Below are positions 7,363-30,080 of a DNA stretch of 64,000 bases, one piece after another. A program made the position numbers and the translations under genes. Numbering within the stretch: position 1 is the first letter of the stretch; the number at the start of each line of letters is the position of its first letter. The notes below the pieces were generated by a model. It was not told the DNA's origin. It worked only from the letters and a program-made list of their open reading frames with translations, and did not search any database. The DNA comes from Calditrichia bacterium (lineage in GTDB: Bacteria; Calditrichota; Calditrichia; RBG-13-44-9; J075), in NCBI GenBank assembly GCA_028284445.1, contig JANQRS010000011.1, forward strand, positions 128,321-192,320, in the 5' to 3' direction.

Positions 7363-8388
7363 ATGCCACGAAAAGGCGTCTTGCTGGTCAATTTGGGCTC
7401 GCCTGACTCACCTGAAGTAGCCGATGTAAAAGTTTATTTGCGCGAATTCTTGATGGACAAGTATGTCATTGACATGCCGTATTTGCTGCGCAAGCTTATC
7501 GTTGAAGGATTCATCCTCCCCAAACGCCCTCAAAAATCAGCAGAAGCATACAAAACTATTTGGTCAGAACAGGGTTCGCCACTCATTGCCATAAGCAAAA
7601 ATGTGCGGCAACAGGTCCAGGAGAGACTAGATGTACCGATTGGCCTCGCCATGCGCTATGGCAATCCATCCATCGAGAGCGGATTGCGTGAGCTCATCGA
7701 AGATCATCAAGTTGACGATGTTTTGCTGATTCCACTGTATGCCGTCTATTCGCTGGCCACAGTTCAGTCGGTTTATGAGCAAACAGAGAGGGTGCTCAAA
7801 CGCTTTTCTCAAGAAATCAACCTCACTATCATTCCACCTTTCTATAATGAGGAGGCGTATCTCGATGCTCTGGCGGCAAGCGCCACAGAAAAACTGGAAT
7901 GGAATTATGACCATTTGCTGATTAGCTTTCATGGACTTCCGGAGCGCCATTTGAAGAAAGCAGATCCAACCGGGGAGCACTGCTTAAAGGTAGAAGATTG
8001 TTGCAACAAGGCTTCGACTGCTCATACAACATGTTATCGGCACCAGGTCTTGCATATCGCCAACGAACTTGTGAAGCGGCTAAACATCCCGAAGGACAAG
8101 TATTCAGTGGCATTTCAGTCTCGCCTGGGCGTTGACAGCTGGCTGAAGCCCTCCACCGCAGGTGAAATTGTTCGCCTGGCGGAGGAAGGCACCAAAAAGC
8201 TGGCGGTGTACTGTCCGGCCTTTGTCTCGGACTGTCTGGAAACGCTGGAAGAAATCGCCATCCAGGGAAAAGAGATGTTTATTGAGGCTGGCGGAGAAGA
8301 ATTGCGGCATATTCCCTGCATGAACGACCACCCTGCCTGGATCGATACGCTGAGCAAATTTTGCCAACGCCACAGTAAAGCCAGTTGA
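7363..8388 (+). CDS. hemH: ferrochelatase
   Basis: 341 aa. Typical N-terminus (VLLVNLGSPDSP...V..YLREFLMD) and overall ferrochelatase pattern. RBS GAGGAGAG upstream. Confidence 0.85.
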   Translation: MPRKGVLLVNLGSPDSPEVADVKVYLREFLMDKYVIDMPYLLRKLIVEGFILPKRPQKSAEAYKTIWSEQGSPLIAISKNVRQQVQERLDVPIGLAMRYGNPSIESGLRELIEDHQVDDVLLIPLYAVYSLATVQSVYEQTERVLKRFSQEINLTIIPPFYNEEAYLDALAASATEKLEWNYDHLLISFHGLPERHLKKADPTGEHCLKVEDCCNKASTAHTTCYRHQVLHIANELVKRLNIPKDKYSVAFQSRLGVDSWLKPSTAGEIVRLAEEGTKKLAVYCPAFVSDCLETLEEIAIQGKEMFIEAGGEELRHIPCMNDHPAWIDTLSKFCQRHSKAS

Positions 8389-8444
8389 GAATTCAGCAAC
8401 CAGGATTTGCATCGTGGCTGCTGAAGGAAATCCACTCGTTCAGG

Positions 8445-9188
8445 TTATTTGACTGGGGACGTTGCAAAATAGGCTTCCACGCTCAGGTTTTCAGCGAAGT
8501 CCGCATATTCCTTTGTGCCGAAAATAGGTTGAGCAGCGGCCTGAAACTTTTCTGCATTTTCCCAAGTGATGATCACAGCTTGCGTGTTTTCTGCGAGGTT
8601 CGGAATGCCTTCCTCATCTAATTTGTAGACTTTGAATTCACGAGCGAATTTGTAGCCACTGTAGTTGTTCAAATGATTGAAGAAAACTTCTCGTTTTTCA
8701 CCAAAGGCGTCAGCTGTTTTGCCCTTTCGCACCGCAAATTCAATAACCTGCCCGTCTTCCTTAATTGAGTTCATATCAAAAGATTGACCATCCAACGGTT
8801 CCAGTAACGCATAAGCCAGGGGATCAAAACTGGCGAAATAATTCCTGGCCTCATCTTGTGGTAGCAGCCGCGCTGCCGCCTCTCCAAATCCCGGCATAGA
8901 ATTCCATTCTGTCATGCCTACCAGAACGCGGCTCAGGTCCATATCGGGCGCTACAGTAAAAAAAGGCTGCCATTTGCCTTCATTACGGGTTGCCATTTCT
9001 TTCCCCAAAACATCAACAAATGCTTGTCGTGTATTCAAAAACGTTTGATGCTGACCTTCTTTTGATTGGTTGATCGCAATTTCGAAAATCGAATTCATTT
9101 CATTCCCTATGGTTTGATCCAGATTCTTGTTTTTGCCGCAGCCAAAGAGTATTCCCAGGCAAAGGCACCCTATCATCATCGACTTCAT
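8445..9188 (-). CDS. hypothetical lipoprotein
   Basis: The only convincing minus-strand gene. Signal peptide with lipobox (LFGC). No known domain recognised. Confidence 0.5.
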   Translation of the reverse strand: MKSMMIGCLCLGILFGCGKNKNLDQTIGNEMNSIFEIAINQSKEGQHQTFLNTRQAFVDVLGKEMATRNEGKWQPFFTVAPDMDLSRVLVGMTEWNSMPGFGEAAARLLPQDEARNYFASFDPLAYALLEPLDGQSFDMNSIKEDGQVIEFAVRKGKTADAFGEKREVFFNHLNNYSGYKFAREFKVYKLDEEGIPNLAENTQAVIITWENAEKFQAAAQPIFGTKEYADFAENLSVEAYFATSPVK

Positions 9189-9322
9189 TTTGACCTGATC
9201 CTTTTTAATGGTTGTCAGATTTCGTTTTCGTATTTATAGTTACTAGTAGCATGATGCGCAAGTAGTTACATTTTGTTTATTTAGTAACAAAAAGTAAACC
9301 ATTGGCCTTAGTAGGGGGTTTT

Positions 9323-9718
9323 ATGCGAAGAGAACTAACAGAGGAAGAAAAACTACATCGCTTCGAAGAAATTTTCAAAAGCCTGAACGAATGCCCGGTG
9401 ACCATTACCCTGAAAATCATTGGAGGCAAATGGAAGCCGACGATCCTCTATTTGATCGACATGGGGATAAATAGATTCGGGGAAATGCATCGGCGACTGC
9501 CGGGAATCAGCAAAAGGATGTTGACAAATCACTTGCGGGAACTGGAAGCCGACGGTATTGTTGATAGAAAGGTTTTTGCGCAAGTGCCGCCAAAGGTCAT
9601 TTATAGCTTGACGGAAGTCGGCAGAACCCTAGAGCCTATTTTTGTGGCGATGGAGGAATGGGGCTTGAAATACGGAAGTACCAAAGCCGCTAATGGAAAC
9701 GGCAAAATCCCGGAATAG
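9323..9718 (+). CDS. HxlR family transcriptional regulator
   Basis: CPV..TL..IGGKWK..IL..L...RFGE..R...GIS.RML...LREL HxlR-type winged-helix signature. ATG 9323 follows a GGGGG RBS. Divergent from the lipoprotein gene. Confidence 0.75.
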   Translation: MRRELTEEEKLHRFEEIFKSLNECPVTITLKIIGGKWKPTILYLIDMGINRFGEMHRRLPGISKRMLTNHLRELEADGIVDRKVFAQVPPKVIYSLTEVGRTLEPIFVAMEEWGLKYGSTKAANGNGKIPE

Positions 9719-9735
9719 CACGCAAGAGTTGAACA

Positions 9736-10794
9736 ATGAACAACGACAAGCAAGAAGTCAAACCTGTCATCCGTTTACTCAGGATCATCATGCCTCTGGT
9801 TGCAATCACCTGCTTGGTGATATTTCCACCGTGGTCCATTGTTTGGACCTGGCTCAGGCCATTGCCGGGCACCGTCCAGCAGCAAGTGGATGCGGCGATT
9901 GAGCATGGGCTGGATGGTGTTATCATTTATGTTGATCGCGCTGGAGAGGAGCCGGCGCTGTACTCTGCCGGCTGGAAAAACAGAGAGAATAAGGTGCCGG
10001 CCGACCCTCATGCGTTTTTCAAAATTGCCAGCATCAGCAAGTTGTATGTCGCTTTGGCGACTGTCAAATTGGTGAAAGAGGAGGAGCTCTCGCTCGATGA
10101 CGCCCTCGCCAAACATTTACCAGAGCTGATTGGAAGAATTGAGAATGCTGAGGACATTACTTTACGACTTATGTTGCAACATCGAAGCGGCATCCCCAAT
10201 TACTCTGACCACCCTGACTTTCCCTGGAATAATCCCCCGAAGGAAAATAGAAAGTCACTTGAGTTGATTTTGGACAAGCCGGCAGACTTTACACCTGGCG
10301 CAGACTACAGCTACTCCAATACCAATTTTCTGCTGATCGGCGAGATCCTCGATAAAACTCTGGGATATAGTCATCATAATTATGTGAAGAGCAAAATCCT
10401 GGAACCATTGGGACTGAGTAATACCTACAGTTTACTGAGCGAAGTGGATCTTGATGATGTCGTCAGCGGATATTATGTCGGCTATGATGGCGATATCAAG
10501 TTTAACGATTTTATTGGACCAGCTGGTTCCATGGTAGCGACTGCAGAGGACGTGGGTATATTTGTGCGGGCATTAAATGACGGTTCCATATTCAATGGTG
10601 ATGAACAAGCGACCTATGCATCTGTGTATCCGTTCGAGCACACAGGCTTGTTGCCCGGCTACTCTAGCATTGCCCGCTACCATAAAGATATTGATGCGGT
10701 TGTTGTTCAGTTTGTGAACACTGCTGGCGGCCACTCCTGGGAGAAGACTGAAATTATCTACAATCGCATCGTCAAAATATTGCGGCGTAGTTGA
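9736..10794 (+). CDS. serine hydrolase (beta-lactamase/PBP-like family)
   Basis: S-x-x-K active-site motif (ASISKLY), YSN-like motif (YSYSNTNF), N-terminal TM/signal region. Confidence 0.75.
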   Translation: MNNDKQEVKPVIRLLRIIMPLVAITCLVIFPPWSIVWTWLRPLPGTVQQQVDAAIEHGLDGVIIYVDRAGEEPALYSAGWKNRENKVPADPHAFFKIASISKLYVALATVKLVKEEELSLDDALAKHLPELIGRIENAEDITLRLMLQHRSGIPNYSDHPDFPWNNPPKENRKSLELILDKPADFTPGADYSYSNTNFLLIGEILDKTLGYSHHNYVKSKILEPLGLSNTYSLLSEVDLDDVVSGYYVGYDGDIKFNDFIGPAGSMVATAEDVGIFVRALNDGSIFNGDEQATYASVYPFEHTGLLPGYSSIARYHKDIDAVVVQFVNTAGGHSWEKTEIIYNRIVKILRRS

Positions 10795-10838
10795 TGACAG
10801 GAAAGAAAAACTCAAAACCAAAGCAGGTGAGGTGAAAA

Positions 10839-11183
10839 ATGAGCAAAAATCCAATTGTTTATTTTGAAATTGGCAGTTCCGATGGCCATAAGGCGAAGAA
10901 ATTTTTCAGCGAATTGTTCGACTGGAATATCACCACGGTGGGATCGGAACAAATGATCGATGCGGGCGAAGGGATTAGCGGACATATCGCCGAATTAGCG
11001 CCTGAATGGGGCAATTATATCACCATCTACGTTCAGGTCGATGATCTCGACAAACACCTCGCGAAAGTAGTAGAGCTGGGTGGCAAAGTTCTTGTCAAGC
11101 CGGTCCAGGTGCCCGGCCAGGGTAGCTTTGCATGGTTTGCGTCACCAGAAGGTAATATTATGGGCTTATGGAAGCCGCAATGA
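10839..11183 (+). CDS. VOC (glyoxalase/bleomycin-resistance/dioxygenase) family protein
   Basis: 114 aa, about 25 aa longer at the N-terminus than the M23 peptidase-like M4... sorry, than a single VOC module by length only. Paired beta-alpha-beta-beta-beta module pattern. RBS GGTGAGGTG. Confidence 0.65.
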   Translation: MSKNPIVYFEIGSSDGHKAKKFFSELFDWNITTVGSEQMIDAGEGISGHIAELAPEWGNYITIYVQVDDLDKHLAKVVELGGKVLVKPVQVPGQGSFAWFASPEGNIMGLWKPQ

Positions 11184-11251
11184 TGACGGTGTTTCAGGGC
11201 AAAAAGTTCGTTGTCTGGTATATTCTGAAAGCATGATAGGAGGAAGTTTGC

Positions 11252-11806
11252 ATGAAAGCACTGGTGTTTTTGTTTGTCTTTAGCCTCTGCATGTATAGTG
11301 GTGAGCCAACCAGCATTAAAACAGGCTTGGGCGTTGGTAATGGCTACGGCTGGGTTGGCGGCGGACTCGAGTTGGAACGCAATCAAATTGCTGCCCATGC
11401 CGGATTCGGATGGGCCTTCCTCGCAGGTGATGATGTGGAGGCCACATTTTTAGGGTGGGATGTAGGTTTGAAATACTTCCTTCGAAATAGGCAGAAAACC
11501 TTCAGGCCTAATATTGCGATCGGACTCGGAAACCTTTATGTATATAAATATGGATTCACAAGCCGCGCAACCGGTGTCGTTATAGCAGAATACGATGGCT
11601 CAATACTGGGTTTCGATGCTTTGCTTGGATTTGATCTGGATTTTGGGCAACCGGGAGGCGTCGTCCCGAACCTGGGTATCGGAGCAGGGATCCCTTTTCA
11701 GGATCTGCCGCAGGAGTTGAAGGACCTGGCGGATGAGTCAAACGTTGAAATAGCTGAGATCAATAGTCTCTTTGTTATTTCTCTTGGTGTGAAATATCAA
11801 TTCTAA
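11252..11806 (+). CDS. outer-membrane beta-barrel protein (hypothetical)
   Basis: Signal peptide, Gly-rich amphipathic strands, terminal Phe (VKYQF) beta-signal. Strong AGGAGG RBS. Confidence 0.45.
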   Translation: MKALVFLFVFSLCMYSGEPTSIKTGLGVGNGYGWVGGGLELERNQIAAHAGFGWAFLAGDDVEATFLGWDVGLKYFLRNRQKTFRPNIAIGLGNLYVYKYGFTSRATGVVIAEYDGSILGFDALLGFDLDFGQPGGVVPNLGIGAGIPFQDLPQELKDLADESNVEIAEINSLFVISLGVKYQF

Positions 11807-11863
11807 GAATGATGTGCGCATGCCGCGACTTGAGACGGATCATACGGAGGTAATAGATCAGTT

Positions 11864-12142
11864 ATGAAATCAGTATATATATTTCAGGGCAACGGCGTGG
11901 AATCGCCCTGTGCAGTATTTTCAAAGCTCGAGACTGCTGAAAACTGGATTAAACATCAAAGTGTTTCCGGCACATTGACAGTTTATCCGCTGGATATCTC
12001 CGTGATCGAATGGGCAGTCGCTATGGGCTATTTTAATCCCAAGAATGATGACCAGAAAACACCGGAGTTTATTGCCGGCTTCACATCGGTGAGCGGCATG
12101 AATTATCACTATGAGGCTGGACAGCGAGTCGGGCACAGCTGA
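11864..12142 (+). CDS. hypothetical protein
   Basis: 92 aa ORF with a start context. No recognisable domain. Confidence 0.3.
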   Translation: MKSVYIFQGNGVESPCAVFSKLETAENWIKHQSVSGTLTVYPLDISVIEWAVAMGYFNPKNDDQKTPEFIAGFTSVSGMNYHYEAGQRVGHS

Positions 12143-12145
12143 GGA

Positions 12146-13237
12146 ATGATGGGACTTAAGTCACTTAAAATAATGACCATCTTTACGACTTTGCTGTTGA
12201 CTGTTTGTCTGCAAGGCTCAGAGTTTTTCGAAACGGATACGATAGAATTTCGATCATCCGGAAAGCGGCTCTCGGGACTGCTGGATGTGCCTAATAACGT
12301 TGAAGCTGTGGGTTTTATCATCTACGTGCATGGTTACGGCAAGACTAATGTTGTCGAAGGAAATTGGTATTACAGCTTTCGTTCGCGTTTTGCAAAATTG
12401 GGTTTCTCGGTTCTGATTTGGGATAAGCCCGGCTGTGGTGCCAGTGAAGGCGAATTCGACATCGATCAGCCTGTTAGTAGCAGTGCCACTGAAGTCGTTG
12501 ATGCTATCGAGACGCTACGCCTGCGCGAAATTCCGGGAAGTGAAAAAGTTGGTCTGTGGGGGATCAGTCGCGCAGGTTGGATAGCGCCGCTGGCTATCAA
12601 CAAAGATCCTACCATCGCTTTTTGGATTTCGGTGAGCGGAACGGACGAGAAAGAGAACTTCAAATACCTGCTTCAGCAAAATTTTCATATCGAAGGCCGT
12701 AGCGCAGAAGAAAGCGAACTATTGGTTTCGGAATGGCAAAACAGTTTCGACGCCTTAAGATCCGGCGCTACGTACGAGACTTACCTGGATGCTGACCAAA
12801 ATCTGCGCGCTGATCCGTTCTATCAATACATTACCAACAATTCACAACCGTATGATAAACCAACATTTATGCAGGAGCAAGAGAGGTATTTGAGCGGCGA
12901 GATACAGGTGGATGAAGAAACAGGATTGATGATATATGTGCCGGAATTTGAGAAGGTGTTAAATGCCGTTAATTGCCCGGTGTTGGCGATCTTCGGCGAG
13001 AAGGATACCAGTGTCGATTGGCGGAAGACGCTCAAGCTATACCAACAAACGATCGGCAGAAATCCAGGGGCAAAGCTAACAATAAAGACTTTTGCAAACT
13101 GCAATCATTCTATGCGAAAATGTGAAACCGGGGGATTTCGGGAAATGATCGAATCGATTAACTATAGTCCCTATTGCGATGGCTATTATGACACAATGAT
13201 TTCATGGCTGAAAACCGAAGTAGGGATTATCCAGTGA
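12146..13237 (+). CDS. secreted alpha/beta hydrolase
   Basis: Signal peptide. Nucleophile elbow GISRAGW (GxSxG). Confidence 0.65.
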   Translation: MMGLKSLKIMTIFTTLLLTVCLQGSEFFETDTIEFRSSGKRLSGLLDVPNNVEAVGFIIYVHGYGKTNVVEGNWYYSFRSRFAKLGFSVLIWDKPGCGASEGEFDIDQPVSSSATEVVDAIETLRLREIPGSEKVGLWGISRAGWIAPLAINKDPTIAFWISVSGTDEKENFKYLLQQNFHIEGRSAEESELLVSEWQNSFDALRSGATYETYLDADQNLRADPFYQYITNNSQPYDKPTFMQEQERYLSGEIQVDEETGLMIYVPEFEKVLNAVNCPVLAIFGEKDTSVDWRKTLKLYQQTIGRNPGAKLTIKTFANCNHSMRKCETGGFREMIESINYSPYCDGYYDTMISWLKTEVGIIQ

Positions 13238-14235
13238 TCTTACGCTTAGTGATTCTCTGTTGTATTATCATCACCTCATTGCTATGTGAAGAGAAAGTGA
13301 AGCCGGATTATAGCCGGGTGGGACTTGAAGGCGCCACCAAAGTTGAATATAACATGCCGAATATCCGCCGCGATCAGCCATTCCTGAGCGACGCGGCCTA
13401 TCGATTTACCCTAACGCCGAACTATACATTCTGGCCATTTCGTGAAAACAAAATCTGGGGCGAGAGCGGTATCTCTGTTGGCTATATTGGTATCTACGAC
13501 TTCTACTTCGGTACAAAAGATTCCGGACCGGTAATCTCACGAAAACAAAACCCGATACTTTATCTGTTTACGGAGCACTCACTTGACAATTATAAGCTAA
13601 AGTTTGTACTTGGACTTGGTCACGAATCCAACGGTCAATTTATATCCAGCCGACGGTCTTACGACTTCTTTGAAAGCGCTTTTGCAGACAGCATACATGG
13701 TTCCGACAGTTCCGGTGACAACCTCAGATATTACCAGTATAATCTCGAAGATTGGGCGAGCATGGGATGGAATTATTACTATACGGAGTGGATTTTCAAG
13801 AAGGCCTCAATTCTTGGAACCAATGCGCGCTTAACATTAAATGTCCATATGCGATGGTTTTTCAAGCACGGCATGCTTGATCCGAGGAATGGAGATCTTG
13901 AAGACAAAATCTTCTATGATCAGGCACTGGACGGGAGAACTTCGATCCGTGATTATGACGGGCTGCGCTATACGCTTGATTGGCGGGGTAATAGCAGGCA
14001 CGTCAACGTTTGGAAAGAGAATTTCCTTGTATATGATCCGTCATTTAGTCTCGGACTGCGCCATGGATATTTAACCGCCGATTTTAATCCGACCCTCTGG
14101 GCAAAAGTATATTTGAAGTTGTTGGGATCTCTGCCTATTTTCTATCAATACAACAATGGCTATGGCAGAGATCTAAGCAACTACCCCTACAAATTTTCCA
14201 GCCACGCAATCGGGGTTGAAATAGGTGCACGATAA
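13204..14235 (+). CDS. pldA: outer-membrane phospholipase A1 (OMPLA family)
   Basis: LGLGHESNGQ matches the catalytic H-x-S-N-G motif of PLA1 (His-Ser, later Asn). Beta-barrel-like composition and signal peptide. An alternative GTG start at 13234 overlaps the upstream stop by 4 nt (GTGA). Confidence 0.6.
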   Translation: MAENRSRDYPVILRLVILCCIIITSLLCEEKVKPDYSRVGLEGATKVEYNMPNIRRDQPFLSDAAYRFTLTPNYTFWPFRENKIWGESGISVGYIGIYDFYFGTKDSGPVISRKQNPILYLFTEHSLDNYKLKFVLGLGHESNGQFISSRRSYDFFESAFADSIHGSDSSGDNLRYYQYNLEDWASMGWNYYYTEWIFKKASILGTNARLTLNVHMRWFFKHGMLDPRNGDLEDKIFYDQALDGRTSIRDYDGLRYTLDWRGNSRHVNVWKENFLVYDPSFSLGLRHGYLTADFNPTLWAKVYLKLLGSLPIFYQYNNGYGRDLSNYPYKFSSHAIGVEIGAR

Positions 14236-27068: not shown

Positions 27069-27302
27069 TTGCGCGCAAACGTTTCCTCCGGCTAGCCGCC
27101 CCCCGCCATCAATTGGGTGCTAATCCCCACAGATCTCAGATTTGCATATATCCCGTCGAACATTATATTTGCTTTTCCTTCAAACCTAACATAGCGGTTA
27201 ATTTTTTAATCTCTATGAAAGAAGACATTTACTGGATACACTTGTAGTTTGATTCAATTGGCAGCTATATTTTGCAACTATTTTTGACAAGAGACAGATG
27301 GG

Positions 27303-29162
27303 ATGCTGAAAAAAGATTTAGATAAACTGGATGTTTTCTGCCTGGCCGCTGGAGCGATGATCAGTTCAGGTTTGTTTGTATTGCCTGGCATCGCTTTTGA
27401 GAAGGCCGGTCCCGCTGTCATCCTGGCATATGCGCTGGCGAGCTTGTTTATCATTCCTGCCTTATTGTCCAAGGCTGAACTGGCCACAGCGATGCCCAAA
27501 GCCGGGGGGAGCTATTTCTTCATCGAGCGCAGCCTTGGACCTCTGGTTGGCACCTATGCCGGTTTTCTGAATTGGCTGTCTATTGCCTTGAAGGCCGGGT
27601 TCGCATTAATCGGCATTGGCACAATCGGCGCACAATTCCTGCCTTTTTCCCCTGAATTTGGCATCAAAATCATCGCAATCGGCAGCTGCCTCGTTTTTAC
27701 GTTAGTCAATCTTGTTTCCGTCAAGAGTGTTGGCAATTTGCAGGTCGTTTTGGTCTTTGGACTACTCGGTATCCTGACGCTGCATGGCCTTTCCGGTCTT
27801 GGCAGCCTGGATAGCGCCGCTTACACGCCGTTTATGACGACTGACACCGAGACGCTTTTCGCGGTTGCCGGTATGATCTTTGTATCCTTTGGCGGCTTAA
27901 CCAAGGTTGCCAGCGTTGGCGAGGAAGTCAAAAATCCGGGACGTAATCTTCCACAGGGCATGTTTCTGGCGATGATTGTTGTCAGCATCTTATATATCCT
28001 GGTTGTTGGTGTTGCGGTTGGCACCGTCGAAGCCAGTGAACTTGCTGGTTCACTTACCCCGGTTGCCCTCAGCGCTGAAAAAATATTTGGCACCTGGGGC
28101 ATCATCGCCATAGAGGCAGCGGCGCTTTTTGCCTTCATCACAACTGCCAATGCCGGTGTGCTATCTGCATCGCGATCTCCTTTGGCTATGAGCCGGGATG
28201 GCCTGCTGCCGGAAGGGCTATCGGAAACCAGCAAGCGTTTCCAAACACCACATACCGCCATCTTAATTACCTCCACTTTTATCATTCTGGTTGTCGGACT
28301 GCTATCCATAGAAGACCTCGTGAAAACCGCCTCGACAATGATGATCCTGATGTTCATTCTTGTCAACATCTCTGTGATTGTAATGCGTAGCAGCAAGCTG
28401 CAAAGCTATCGCCCTATTTTTCGTGCACCCTTCTACCCGTGGCTACAGATAGTGTCAGTTGTCTTATACGGCTTCCTGATCTTCGAAATGGGCCTCGTGC
28501 CGCTACTGCTCACTTTTGGCTTTGGACTACTGGCCGGACTCTGGTATGTCGGCTACGTCTGGCGCAAAATTGACCGCGAGTCTGCTTTTGTATATCTCGT
28601 CAAATCGATCACTTCGAGCGACATCGATAGAAGCGGTCTGGAAGATGAGCTCCGGCATATTTCCCTGGAACGAAGCGGCGTTGAGTTGGATCGCTTTGAT
28701 CATCTGGTCAAGGAATGCGAAATTTTGGATATCGAAGAAGAGATTGACGCCAAAGAGCTCTTTCACAAGATGGCCAAAGCATTGGCTGAGCGCCTGGATA
28801 TGGACGAAGAATTCCTCTTCGACTCTTTCCTTAAGCGAGAGAAGCAATCGAGCACCGTCATTAGTCCCGGCTTAGCCATTCCTCATATTATAGTTGATGG
28901 CGAAGATGTGTTTGAGGTAATGCTGGTACGCTGTAAGAAAGGGGCTAACTTTTCCGATCTCAACCAGCCGGTGAAAATGGTCATCGTTCTCTTGGGGTCT
29001 CCGGATCAGCGAAATTATCATCTCCGCGCCTTGATGAATGTTGCCCATCTTGTAAAGAATCCGAAATTCAAGGAAGGCTGGTTAAATGCCCGAAATACGG
29101 AGCAGCTGCGTGATGTTATGCTCCTGTCTCGAAAGCGGGAAAAGAAACCGGAACAGTGGTAA
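27303..29162 (+). CDS. APC-family amino-acid permease fused to C-terminal PTS EIIA type-2 (EIIA-Ntr-like) domain
   Basis: About 420 aa 12-TM APC core (FxxAGAMISSGLFVLPG). About 150 aa C-terminal domain with the EIIA-2 signature (GLAIPH, second His in YHL). Confidence 0.7.
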   Translation: MLKKDLDKLDVFCLAAGAMISSGLFVLPGIAFEKAGPAVILAYALASLFIIPALLSKAELATAMPKAGGSYFFIERSLGPLVGTYAGFLNWLSIALKAGFALIGIGTIGAQFLPFSPEFGIKIIAIGSCLVFTLVNLVSVKSVGNLQVVLVFGLLGILTLHGLSGLGSLDSAAYTPFMTTDTETLFAVAGMIFVSFGGLTKVASVGEEVKNPGRNLPQGMFLAMIVVSILYILVVGVAVGTVEASELAGSLTPVALSAEKIFGTWGIIAIEAAALFAFITTANAGVLSASRSPLAMSRDGLLPEGLSETSKRFQTPHTAILITSTFIILVVGLLSIEDLVKTASTMMILMFILVNISVIVMRSSKLQSYRPIFRAPFYPWLQIVSVVLYGFLIFEMGLVPLLLTFGFGLLAGLWYVGYVWRKIDRESAFVYLVKSITSSDIDRSGLEDELRHISLERSGVELDRFDHLVKECEILDIEEEIDAKELFHKMAKALAERLDMDEEFLFDSFLKREKQSSTVISPGLAIPHIIVDGEDVFEVMLVRCKKGANFSDLNQPVKMVIVLLGSPDQRNYHLRALMNVAHLVKNPKFKEGWLNARNTEQLRDVMLLSRKREKKPEQW

Positions 29163-30080
29163 TTGCCCATAGCAAAGCCCACTCCGCTGGAAACTCAGAT
29201 GTCAGATTGTCATCAGGAAACTTTCCATATAGACTGCGCCGGCGCAAGAATATTCGTTGCTCGCTGGCAGCCCCGCATATCACACTCCACTATTCCTGTT
29301 GTTCTACTTCATGATTCCCTAGGGTGCGTAAGAACCTGGCGAAAATTTCCGCAAGCGCTGGCGCTTTCTCTCAGTCGTCCGGTAATCACCTATGACCGCC
29401 CGGGCTTCGGCCAATCTGACCAGCGCTTTGATACGCTGCCAAATGATTTTGTGGAAGAAGAGGCACGAAGCACGTTTCCTGCTTTTTGCCAGGCGCTCGA
29501 TCTGACGCAGGTGGTTCTTTTTGGGCACAGTGTTGGTGGTGGCATGGCCGTAGCCATAGCAGCTGCAAATACCGGAAGCGATTTATGCCATGCTGTCATC
29601 ACCGAATCAGCACAGGCATTTGTTGAAGAACGAACCCTTGAGGGAATTCGCGCTGCCAAAGCGCGTTTTCGAGATCCGGAGAAATTCGCGAAGCTTGAAA
29701 AATATCATGGAAAGAAAGCGCAATGGGTATTGAATGCCTGGACAGAGACCTGGCTCTCTCCTGAGTTCGCTGACTGGCAACTCGAGCCACTCTTGGAAAA
29801 AGTGCATTGTCCGTTATTGGCAATTCATGGAGACCAGGATGAATTTGGCTCCCTGGATTTTCCAAAGCGAATTTCTGATAATGTCCCCGGCCCAAGCGAA
29901 ATGAAAGTGCTGGCTGGCGTTGGGCATATTCCACATCGCGAGGATCCGGACGAGGTTATAAGCATCGTTGATTCTTTTCTGAAGCGTCATGAAATTGCAA
30001 GGCCGCAATCAAAATCGGAAGCAAAGGATGAGAAAGGGCAAATACTTGTTGGCAGGGATGTGGCAAATAGACCTCTGTGA
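29163..30080 (+). CDS. alpha/beta hydrolase
   Basis: GHSVGGGMA nucleophile elbow and downstream Asp/His. An alternative ATG start lies at 29199. Confidence 0.7.
   Translation: MPIAKPTPLETQMSDCHQETFHIDCAGARIFVARWQPRISHSTIPVVLLHDSLGCVRTWRKFPQALALSLSRPVITYDRPGFGQSDQRFDTLPNDFVEEEARSTFPAFCQALDLTQVVLFGHSVGGGMAVAIAAANTGSDLCHAVITESAQAFVEERTLEGIRAAKARFRDPEKFAKLEKYHGKKAQWVLNAWTETWLSPEFADWQLEPLLEKVHCPLLAIHGDQDEFGSLDFPKRISDNVPGPSEMKVLAGVGHIPHREDPDEVISIVDSFLKRHEIARPQSKSEAKDEKGQILVGRDVANRPL

Follow-up and report, generated by a model that had tools for sequence, protein, structure and literature searches.

An APC-type permease with a fused PtsN-like EIIA domain, widespread in bacteria and a candidate for direct control by a regulatory phosphotransferase system

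Gene and domain layout

The DNA analysed here, a stretch of 64,000 nucleotides from contig JANQRS010000011.1 of a Calditrichia bacterium (hereafter the window), carries at 27303..29162 on the + strand a gene for a 619-aa protein in which an APC-type permease is continued at its C-terminus by an EIIA type-2 domain (EIIA_2) of the phosphoenolpyruvate (PEP)-dependent phosphotransferase system (PTS). According to both the list of open reading frames (ORFs) and the sequence itself, the frame is single and uninterrupted from an ATG at 27303 to a TAA at 29160-29162. Comparison of loci supports this start codon, as relatives share the N-terminus MLKK(D/E)L. A protein 100% identical to the product is public (P0001 in NCBI/Logan).

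Three segments can be distinguished, all on the + strand: a core of the APC superfamily (LeuT fold) with 12 transmembrane (TM) helices, delimited by PF13520, the match to GkApcT and an AlphaFold2 (AF2) model (residues 1-420; 27303..28562); a conserved cytoplasmic linker, recognised by its column conservation and AF2 helices (residues 421-461; 28563..28685); and a PtsN-like EIIA type-2 domain of the Fru/Mtl/Ntr superfamily, assigned by PF00359, profile comparison, AF2 and Foldseek (residues ~462-608; 28686..29126). The full-length AF2 model, built from a 53-sequence alignment, has a mean predicted local distance difference test score (pLDDT) of 81.5 and a predicted TM-score (pTM) of 0.68. It contains 12 TM helices, TM1 being broken at residues 23-27 and TM6 at 196-198, and the helix of TM12 extends beyond the membrane on the cytoplasmic side as far as about residue 436. 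Between this extension and the well-predicted alpha/beta C-terminal domain (473-608) lie two short, less confidently predicted helices (446-455 and 462-471). Given 12 TM helices and the established topology of APC carriers, the EIIA tail is predicted to be cytoplasmic, where HPr acts, as a domain that accepts phosphate from HPr would need to be.

The linker is conserved to the same degree as the parts that it joins. Across the 120 best matches to the protein in a collection of 5.8 billion proteins (56-78% identity), its mean column conservation is 0.74, compared with 0.72 for the TM core and 0.70 for the EIIA domain. Residues R425, S427, E449, L450 and R457 are invariant. Because its conservation equals that of the core and the EIIA domain, the linker looks as if it couples the two rather than tethering them loosely. 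Its first ~30 residues are specific to APC fusions; relatives of the tail on other carriers match only from about residue 450.

The permease core

The core matches two Pfam permease families, PF13520 (AA_permease_2; residues 9-394, E=3e-44, 152.1 bits against a cutoff of 27) and PF00324 (AA_permease; E=1.7e-34, 119.8 bits against a cutoff of 24.6). By phmmer it aligns to GkApcT (PDB 6f34), a homologue of the cationic amino acid transporters, with E=5.9e-34 and 27% identity. Foldseek placed the whole AF2 model on the same structure with a target-normalised TM-score (TMt) of 0.84 and a root-mean-square deviation (rmsd) of 2.4; MjApcT, BasC and LAT1 were among its other matches, and TMt reached 0.80 to 3gi8 and 0.86 to 9h76. 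Model and structural matches thus agree on a 12-TM LeuT fold with broken TM1 and TM6. The motifs M19-I-S-S-G-L-F25 of TM1 and G197-G-L-T-K-V202 of TM6 are invariant or near-invariant. Carriers of the GkApcT/MjApcT/BasC type (SLC7-related; TC 2.A.3) share the 12-TM LeuT fold and the unwound, carboxylate-binding segment of TM1, which is retained here; they differ in having no C-terminal regulatory domain.

To compare functional residues, we carried those described for GkApcT over to the core via the 27%-identity phmmer alignment. In GkApcT, the TM1 backbone at T43-G44 binds the alpha-carboxylate, D237 is essential and conserved in SLC7, K191 in TM5 is a surrogate for the Na2 site and E115 serves proton coupling (PMC5803215). 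The equivalents of T43-G44 are S22-G23, both family-invariant; D237 corresponds to T200 (invariant), which is followed by K201, and K191 to L154 (invariant). E115 probably corresponds to N90, a low-confidence assignment in a gappy part of the alignment. Set against the APC/SLC7 motifs, the family-invariant departures are ISSGLF in TM1 (residues S21-S22-G23) for the canonical IG(S/T)GIF, GGLTK in TM6 for (I/V)GF(D/E), and Leu (L154) for the Lys of TM5. They point to an ion-coupling or gating chemistry that differs from that of GkApcT/ApcT.

The curated APC subfamilies of NCBIfam were not reached: the best score, to TIGR00909 (ABT-type), was 226.5 against a cutoff of 556.8, followed by BcaP NF053761 with 183.4 against 690, and the remaining NCBIfam APC models scored lower. 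Because every curated cutoff is missed, the core falls into no named NCBIfam subfamily. Since D237, K191 and E115 are also replaced, its coupling mode and substrate may differ from those of GkApcT, and on the same two grounds we assign the core, as far as its sequence tells, to a distinct subfamily of APC carriers. The predicted substrate is most likely an amino acid or a related amine or organocation, and an amino-acid-like substrate is plausible.

The EIIA domain and its phosphotransfer residues

Residues 482-605 score 76.8 bits with PF00359 (PTS_EIIA_2; cutoff 27, E=2.1e-21), and the match spans positions 16-140 of a model that is 144 positions long. A first-pass annotation of this DNA had read the ORF as a 12-TM APC core joined to an EIIA type-2 domain, and PF13520, PF00359, AF2 and Foldseek all bear this out. 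It had also named a miss of the PTS_EIIA_2 model, or loss of the conserved His, as grounds for dropping that reading; both were looked at, and the model matches and the His is in place. The two motifs on which the annotation had relied, GLAIPH and YHLRALMN, lie at residues 523-528 and 572-579.

Aligned by phmmer to PtsN of E. coli (PDB 1a6j), the first of these regions sets KREKQSSTVISPGLAIPH opposite TREKMGSTGIGNGIAIPH, and the second sets DQRNYHLRAL opposite DQTKTHLHTL. Counting positions in the printed 1a6j alignment, R512, H528 and H573 fall on R57, H73 and H120 of PtsN. H73 is the phosphorylated residue of EIIA-Ntr. The corresponding codons, all on the + strand, are CGA for Arg512 (28836..28838), CAT for His528 within GLAIPH, the predicted phosphorylation site (28884..28886), and CAT for His573 within NYHLRAL (29019..29021). 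Within the fusion family the EIIA signature reads STVIxPGLAIPH ... DERNYHLRAL, and these residues predict that the domain is catalytically intact.

Profile and structure comparisons identified the same nearest relatives. A profile of the tail matched four PtsN structures with E-values from 8e-12 to 4e-8, and sugar-specific IIA domains at 1e-4 or worse. Modelled alone, residues 421-619 gave an AF2 structure with a pLDDT of 86 and a pTM of 0.84, whose best Foldseek matches were again PtsN (1a6j, TMt 0.82; 2a0j, TMt 0.85; then 3urr and 4gqx; rmsd 2.2-2.6 A). Next in order came a Yersinia EIIA, the cytoplasmic domains of SLC4 carriers and IIA-Mtl (TMt 0.75).

Distribution and conservation of the fusion

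To assess how widely the architecture occurs, we examined the 120 best relatives together with a scan of one genome per species. Both PF13520 and PF00359 were present in all 120 relatives. At least 584 species-representative genomes from more than 15 phyla encode full-length relatives of the fusion. The best 80 of these genomes, with identities of 48-78% over residues ~2-615, belong to Planctomycetota (Phycisphaerae, Pirellulales), Verrucomicrobiota, Kiritimatiellia, Lentisphaerales, Calditrichia, Holophagae, Hydrogenedentota, Cloacimonadota, Neomarinimicrobiota, Latescibacterota, Omnitrophota, WOR-3, Myxococcota, Desulfuromonadaceae and others. The closest homologue among the matches listed comes from a Calditrichia metagenome-assembled genome (MAG; 78% identity). 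Several relatives bear the Joint Genome Institute (JGI) label 'amino acid transporter/mannitol/fructose-specific PTS IIA component (Ntr-type)'. The gene is thus an ordinary member of a widespread family that automatic annotation had already flagged, and the rarity implied by the first-pass annotation does not hold.

The three residues predicted to serve phosphotransfer are conserved throughout. Among the 120 closest relatives, the equivalent of R512 is kept in 120/120, H528 in 118/120 and H573 in 119/120; among 79 species-level copies, the counts are 78/79, 79/79 and 77/79, with Tyr in place of the second His in the remaining two. The GLAIPH His and the second His picked out in the first-pass annotation are therefore present and near-invariant, and Arg512 is conserved with them. 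Such a triad, near-invariant over 48-78% identity, is the pattern expected if selection acts on phosphotransfer chemistry. We conclude from these comparisons that the fusion is old and real and, to judge by its conservation, under selection in all its parts, the catalytic triad included.

The literature searched contained neither an experimental study nor a description of APC-EIIA or CPA2-EIIA fusions; a comparative-genomics review of the PTS is said to list fusions of IIA-Ntr to transporters.

Two genomes carry tandem pairs of APC-EIIA paralogs: at locus L046 the copies lie at 8099-9958 and 9989-11848 and share 66% identity, and in L074 they lie at 9995-11851 and 11925-13760 and share 53%. 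These pairs suggest duplication with divergence of substrate or regulation. We also observed that the fusion protein is 74% identical to its counterpart in the planctomycete Ca. Uabimicrobium amorphum and 65% identical to that in Acanthopleuribacter (Acidobacteriota). The ferrochelatase encoded in the same window (7363-8385) is 58-62% identical to Calditrichia/Caldithrix proteins among named matches, its unnamed metagenomic relatives reaching 80-90%. The contrast suggests that the fusion gene has either evolved unusually slowly or spread horizontally. A planctomycete origin of the window, to which the 74% match might point, was rejected: the ferrochelatase and the 78% Calditrichia homologue both indicate that the source is probably an uncultured bacterium related to Calditrichota.

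The same EIIA module on other proteins

The tail (residues 421-619) was searched exhaustively by phmmer against 1.84 billion representatives of 50%-identity clusters, giving 2508 matches at E<=1e-3, 344 at E<=1e-10 and 94 at E<=1e-30. These comprise APC fusions of ~610-630 aa, fragments and longer proteins, ten of which were scanned with Pfam. Seven of the ten combine Na_H_Exchanger, TrkA_N and PTS_EIIA_2, and one combines Na_H_Exchanger, TrkA_C and EIIA; these are fusions of the CPA2/Kef type with a TrkA_N or TrkA_C (RCK) domain (P0300, P0342, P0357, P0360, P0361, P0367, P0384 and P0290). Another (P0307) joins EIIA to a P-type cation ATPase and carries the JGI name 'magnesium-transporting ATPase/...IIA'. 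The last has a C-terminal EIIA on the alpha subunit of F0F1 ATP synthase (P0301/P0391/P0392), an unusual fusion that occurs in three independent assemblies, one of them a Victivallales MAG at NCBI (MCK5843070.1).

In all these siblings the EIIA domain is C-terminal and 35-42% identical to the tail (E 1e-28 to 1e-35). They differ from the APC fusion in cargo and do not share the APC-specific first ~30 residues of the linker. The Arg and the putative phospho-His are kept in 10/10 of the longer matches and the second His in 9/10, within a common signature RE..STV..PGLA(I/V)PH ... ERNFHLRAL. Taking all architectures together, the phospho-His is kept in 145/151 proteins, and the second His is replaced by Tyr in 22/151. 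That one EIIA subtype with its phosphorylation site intact sits on several carrier types argues that the tail is a portable regulatory input module for proteins of membrane transport and energy metabolism. The Kef-type antiporter fusions echo the control that free PtsN exerts over K+ transport by Trk and Kdp in E. coli.

A proposed mechanism and its precedents

We consider phosphorylation-dependent regulation of the carrier, in cis, by its fused EIIA domain to be the best explanation of these observations, with a probability of about 0.6. Phosphate would pass from PEP to Enzyme I (EI), then to an HPr- or NPr-type carrier protein of a regulatory PTS that has no permeases of its own, and from there reversibly to His528. 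The phosphorylation state of His528 would alter the contact of the EIIA domain and linker with the cytoplasmic face of the carrier, and the altered contact would raise or lower transport; uptake would thereby be tied to the PEP/pyruvate, that is, the carbon and energy, status of the cell.

This mechanism is supported by precedent, because in LacS of S. thermophilus HPr(His~P) phosphorylates a fused IIA domain and transport is thereby modulated (PMC8154325). By analogy with LacS and from the conserved residues, we infer that HPr would phosphorylate the tail and that transport would respond. In function LacS, likewise a secondary carrier with a covalently attached cytoplasmic C-terminal EIIA, comes closest, and the mechanism proposed here is modelled on it. 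It is an analogue and not a member of the family: LacS joins a domain of the EIIA-Glc type (PTS_EIIA_1, an unrelated fold) to a GPH/MFS-type sugar carrier in Firmicutes that have a complete sugar PTS, whereas the present protein joins PTS_EIIA_2 to a carrier of the APC/LeuT fold in phyla mostly without a sugar PTS.

Another system close to the tail is PtsN (E. coli 1a6j, N. meningitidis 2a0j, Burkholderia 3urr/4gqx), its best match, which has the same triad (R57/H73/H120). PtsN regulates transporters (Trk, Kdp and ABC systems) through its phosphorylation state. It is, however, a free and soluble protein that acts in trans, is typically encoded in an rpoN cluster and is fed by a GAF-containing EI-Ntr and NPr, whereas the tail studied here sits in cis on a membrane carrier, has its own signature and stays below the PtsN equivalog cutoff.

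The literature bears on which phosphorelay might feed the tail. The GAF-containing EI-Ntr is restricted to Proteobacteria (PMC2405797), and regulatory EI(R)-HPr chains unaccompanied by PTS permeases have been described in Planctomycetes, Chlamydiales, Chlorobia and Leptospira (PMC2405797; also PMC13104625). PTS components have been reported in Caldithrix abyssi, of the phylum nearest to the source organism (PMC5317091). The first-pass annotation had proposed that the fusion would place the transporter under nitrogen-PTS control. Phosphorylation-dependent control in cis survives as the best reading of the fusion; its nitrogen-specific part fares less well, as the carrier phyla, where studied, have EI(R)-HPr (PMC2405797) and no gene for HPr, NPr or EI was found in the window or within 10 kb on either side of ~80 homologous loci (84 sequences, 1.2 Mb).

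Weighing the alternatives

Several results weigh against phosphorylation-dependent regulation in cis. In a six-frame scan of the 64-kb window, no motif of an HPr or Enzyme I active site turned up. Searching the 1.2 Mb by tblastn with HPr, NPr and EI returned no HPr and, for EI, two candidates that were both rejected (see below); given the query sequences used, this negative carries moderate weight. We found no published PTS inventory for Cloacimonadota, Omnitrophota, WOR-3 or other carrier phyla. In the full-length AF2 model the geometry between the domains is uncertain (linker pLDDT 51-69), and the core is without the GkApcT residues D237, K191 and E115. Finally, the tail scores 44.5 bits against the cutoff of 138.7 for the PtsN equivalog model TIGR01419 and 51.2 against 103.5 for the fructose-IIA (FruA-IIA) model. 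A further model, NF008145, is likewise missed, with 44.4 bits against a cutoff of 221. We conclude, from sequence and model comparisons together, that the tail is PtsN-like, yet no PtsN equivalog; the EIIA-Ntr/PtsN type given in the first-pass annotation is right about the closest solved structures, by profile and by fold, and too narrow as a class assignment.

Some of these results would equally suit an EIIA-fold tail that works without phosphorylation, serving to scaffold, to oligomerise or to bind an allosteric ligand, like the cytoplasmic domains of SLC4 carriers. Relay genes lie near no copy in the window and flank searches, the domain is under the PtsN and FruA cutoffs, and the second His has become Tyr in 22/151 members of the wider module family. 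SLC4 domains (NDCBE 5jho, band 3 4ky9/1hyn, AE2 and BTR1) are also the next-best folds after the bacterial EIIAs, and the N-terminal domain of SLC4 proteins (band 3/AE1, AE2, NDCBE, BTR1) is an instance of an EIIA fold placed covalently on a carrier, for regulation or anchoring. That domain is N-terminal, eukaryotic and larger, and to our knowledge it is not known for His phosphotransfer. We regard a phosphorylation-independent tail as unlikely: the R/H/H triad is near-invariant over deep divergence and on four carrier types, which is hard to explain without phosphotransfer, and the nearest relatives by both sequence and fold are bona fide PtsN proteins, not SLC4 domains, which are only 11-14% identical.

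If phosphotransfer does take place, information could also flow in the opposite direction. The carrier would then be a transceptor: its conformation or occupancy would set the ease with which the EIIA domain takes phosphate from HPr~P, and by drawing on HPr~P or leaving it untouched the protein would inform the regulatory PTS of the amino acids available outside the cell. Sugar EII complexes set phosphorylation in the classical PTS in a comparable way, transport activity there determining the phosphorylation state of EIIA. An intact catalytic triad is compatible with such a role, the conserved linker could relay the conformation of the carrier, and the tandem paralog pairs of L046 and L074 would suit sensors of different ligands. 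We nevertheless think a transceptor quite improbable: neither an EIIB-like acceptor nor a substrate that could be phosphorylated is evident, which leaves no obvious sink for phosphate; an input (regulatory) domain more simply explains why the module also sits on Kef-type antiporters, a Mg-ATPase and ATP synthase alpha; and in the LacS precedent it is the carrier that is regulated. That the fusion is an artefact (assembly error, frameshift or read-through) or a decaying pseudogene is refuted by the uninterrupted frame, the identical public protein, the same architecture in 120/120 best relatives, full-length copies in at least 584 species genomes and comparable purifying selection on the three segments.

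Phosphorylation-dependent regulation of the carrier in cis is therefore the reading that we retain, and the fusion family probably lets a PEP-driven phosphorelay switch nutrient uptake directly. A broader and tentative proposal, which we hold to be possible and on balance doubtful, is that the APC-EIIA, Kef-type K+/H+ antiporter, Mg-ATPase and ATP-synthase-alpha fusions are arms of one hard-wired output layer of a permease-less regulatory PTS. The hosts of such an output layer may include the Planctomycetes-Verrucomicrobia-Chlamydiae (PVC) group, Calditrichota, Acidobacteriota and many candidate phyla; in a variant of the proposal, the carrier may be a transceptor that feeds amino-acid availability into the relay.

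Significance for regulatory phosphotransferase systems

Outside Proteobacteria, little is understood of what PTS-Ntr-like regulatory relays do, and few of their direct targets are known. An intact EIIA domain on a nutrient carrier, on Kef-type antiporters, on a Mg-ATPase and on the ATP synthase alpha subunit would name targets of such relays outright, and it makes a testable prediction, namely that transport changes once HPr has phosphorylated His528. Free PtsN acts in a parallel way on K+ transporters of E. coli, which suggests that the PTS has been linked to the flux of ions or nutrients since ancient times. Should the output-layer proposal be true, a single PEP-driven relay would gate amino-acid uptake, cation homeostasis and ATP synthesis in cis, and the fusions would provide 'Rosetta-stone' evidence of the physiological targets that have long been sought for PTS-Ntr-like systems outside Proteobacteria. 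The value of the finding lies in the family and in the wider set of EIIA-tailed carriers and not in the window locus, which holds one ordinary copy.

Upstream region and gene neighbourhood

Upstream of the fusion gene lies an AT-rich intergenic gap of 234 bp (27069..27302, +), with a G+C fraction of ~0.37 compared with ~0.50 in the flanks. It had been proposed at first pass that this leader could hold additional regulation. The gap and its composition are real. We found no riboswitch or leader RNA in it, since Rfam gave no match at gathering or permissive thresholds, and no excess RNA structure (minimum free energy z=0.08 against shuffled sequence). Comparison with three homologous loci (L001, L004 and L008) revealed no conservation of 27069-27302 beyond the start codon region. 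Counts of promoter-like and terminator-like sites in the gap were not clearly above shuffled expectation; one weak sigma-70-like site (score 9/12) lies at 27141-27169 (+). We conclude that the gap is an ordinary promoter and 5' untranslated region, not a recognisable regulatory RNA.

The annotated neighbours of the fusion gene are an FG-GAP/PQQ propeller protein, TPMT, SDR and MOSC proteins, a membrane protein, an alpha/beta hydrolase, DUF1801, a Coa1-like protein and an S41 peptidase. No rpoN/ptsO context (the cluster rpoN-hpf-ptsN-(rapZ)-ptsO) was seen around the gene, and the six-frame scan of the 64-kb window found no second EIIA motif. An operon partner or conserved synteny was rejected, as the window, a Uabimicrobium-like MAG and Acanthopleuribacter each have different genes beside the fusion. 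When ~990 flank ORFs were clustered, no neighbour family recurred in more than 6 of ~82 loci. A missing conserved neighbour is to be expected if the partner is a global relay encoded elsewhere; the neighbourhood fits such a relay and does not itself demonstrate that one exists. Two tblastn candidates for Enzyme I were rejected by size and position only, a 902-aa ORF in L069 that is PPDK-sized and a 99-aa piece in L067 that is a fragment at a contig end.

Directly downstream, the longest ORF for an alpha/beta hydrolase (29163-30080; PF00561, with a GHSVGG nucleophile motif) begins with a TTG immediately after the permease stop codon. This could reflect translational coupling, or the true start could lie further downstream, the latter being more likely. 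The hydrolase is not found downstream of the two homologs in the Uabimicrobium-like MAG and Acanthopleuribacter, nor did it recur in the clustering of flank ORFs.

Across the window (1-64000), coding-strand bias is extreme, with 72/77 greedy ORF calls on the + strand, and Rfam found no tRNA or rRNA match in the 64 kb. The window is made up, like a patchwork, of small accessory genes unrelated in function: besides the ferrochelatase, it includes an amine oxidase, two hydrolases of the beta-lactamase family, a WG-repeat protein, PhzF, a VWA protein, an ADP-ribosylglycohydrolase, an ECF sigma factor with DUF6596, an S9 peptidase, TPR proteins and PanE.

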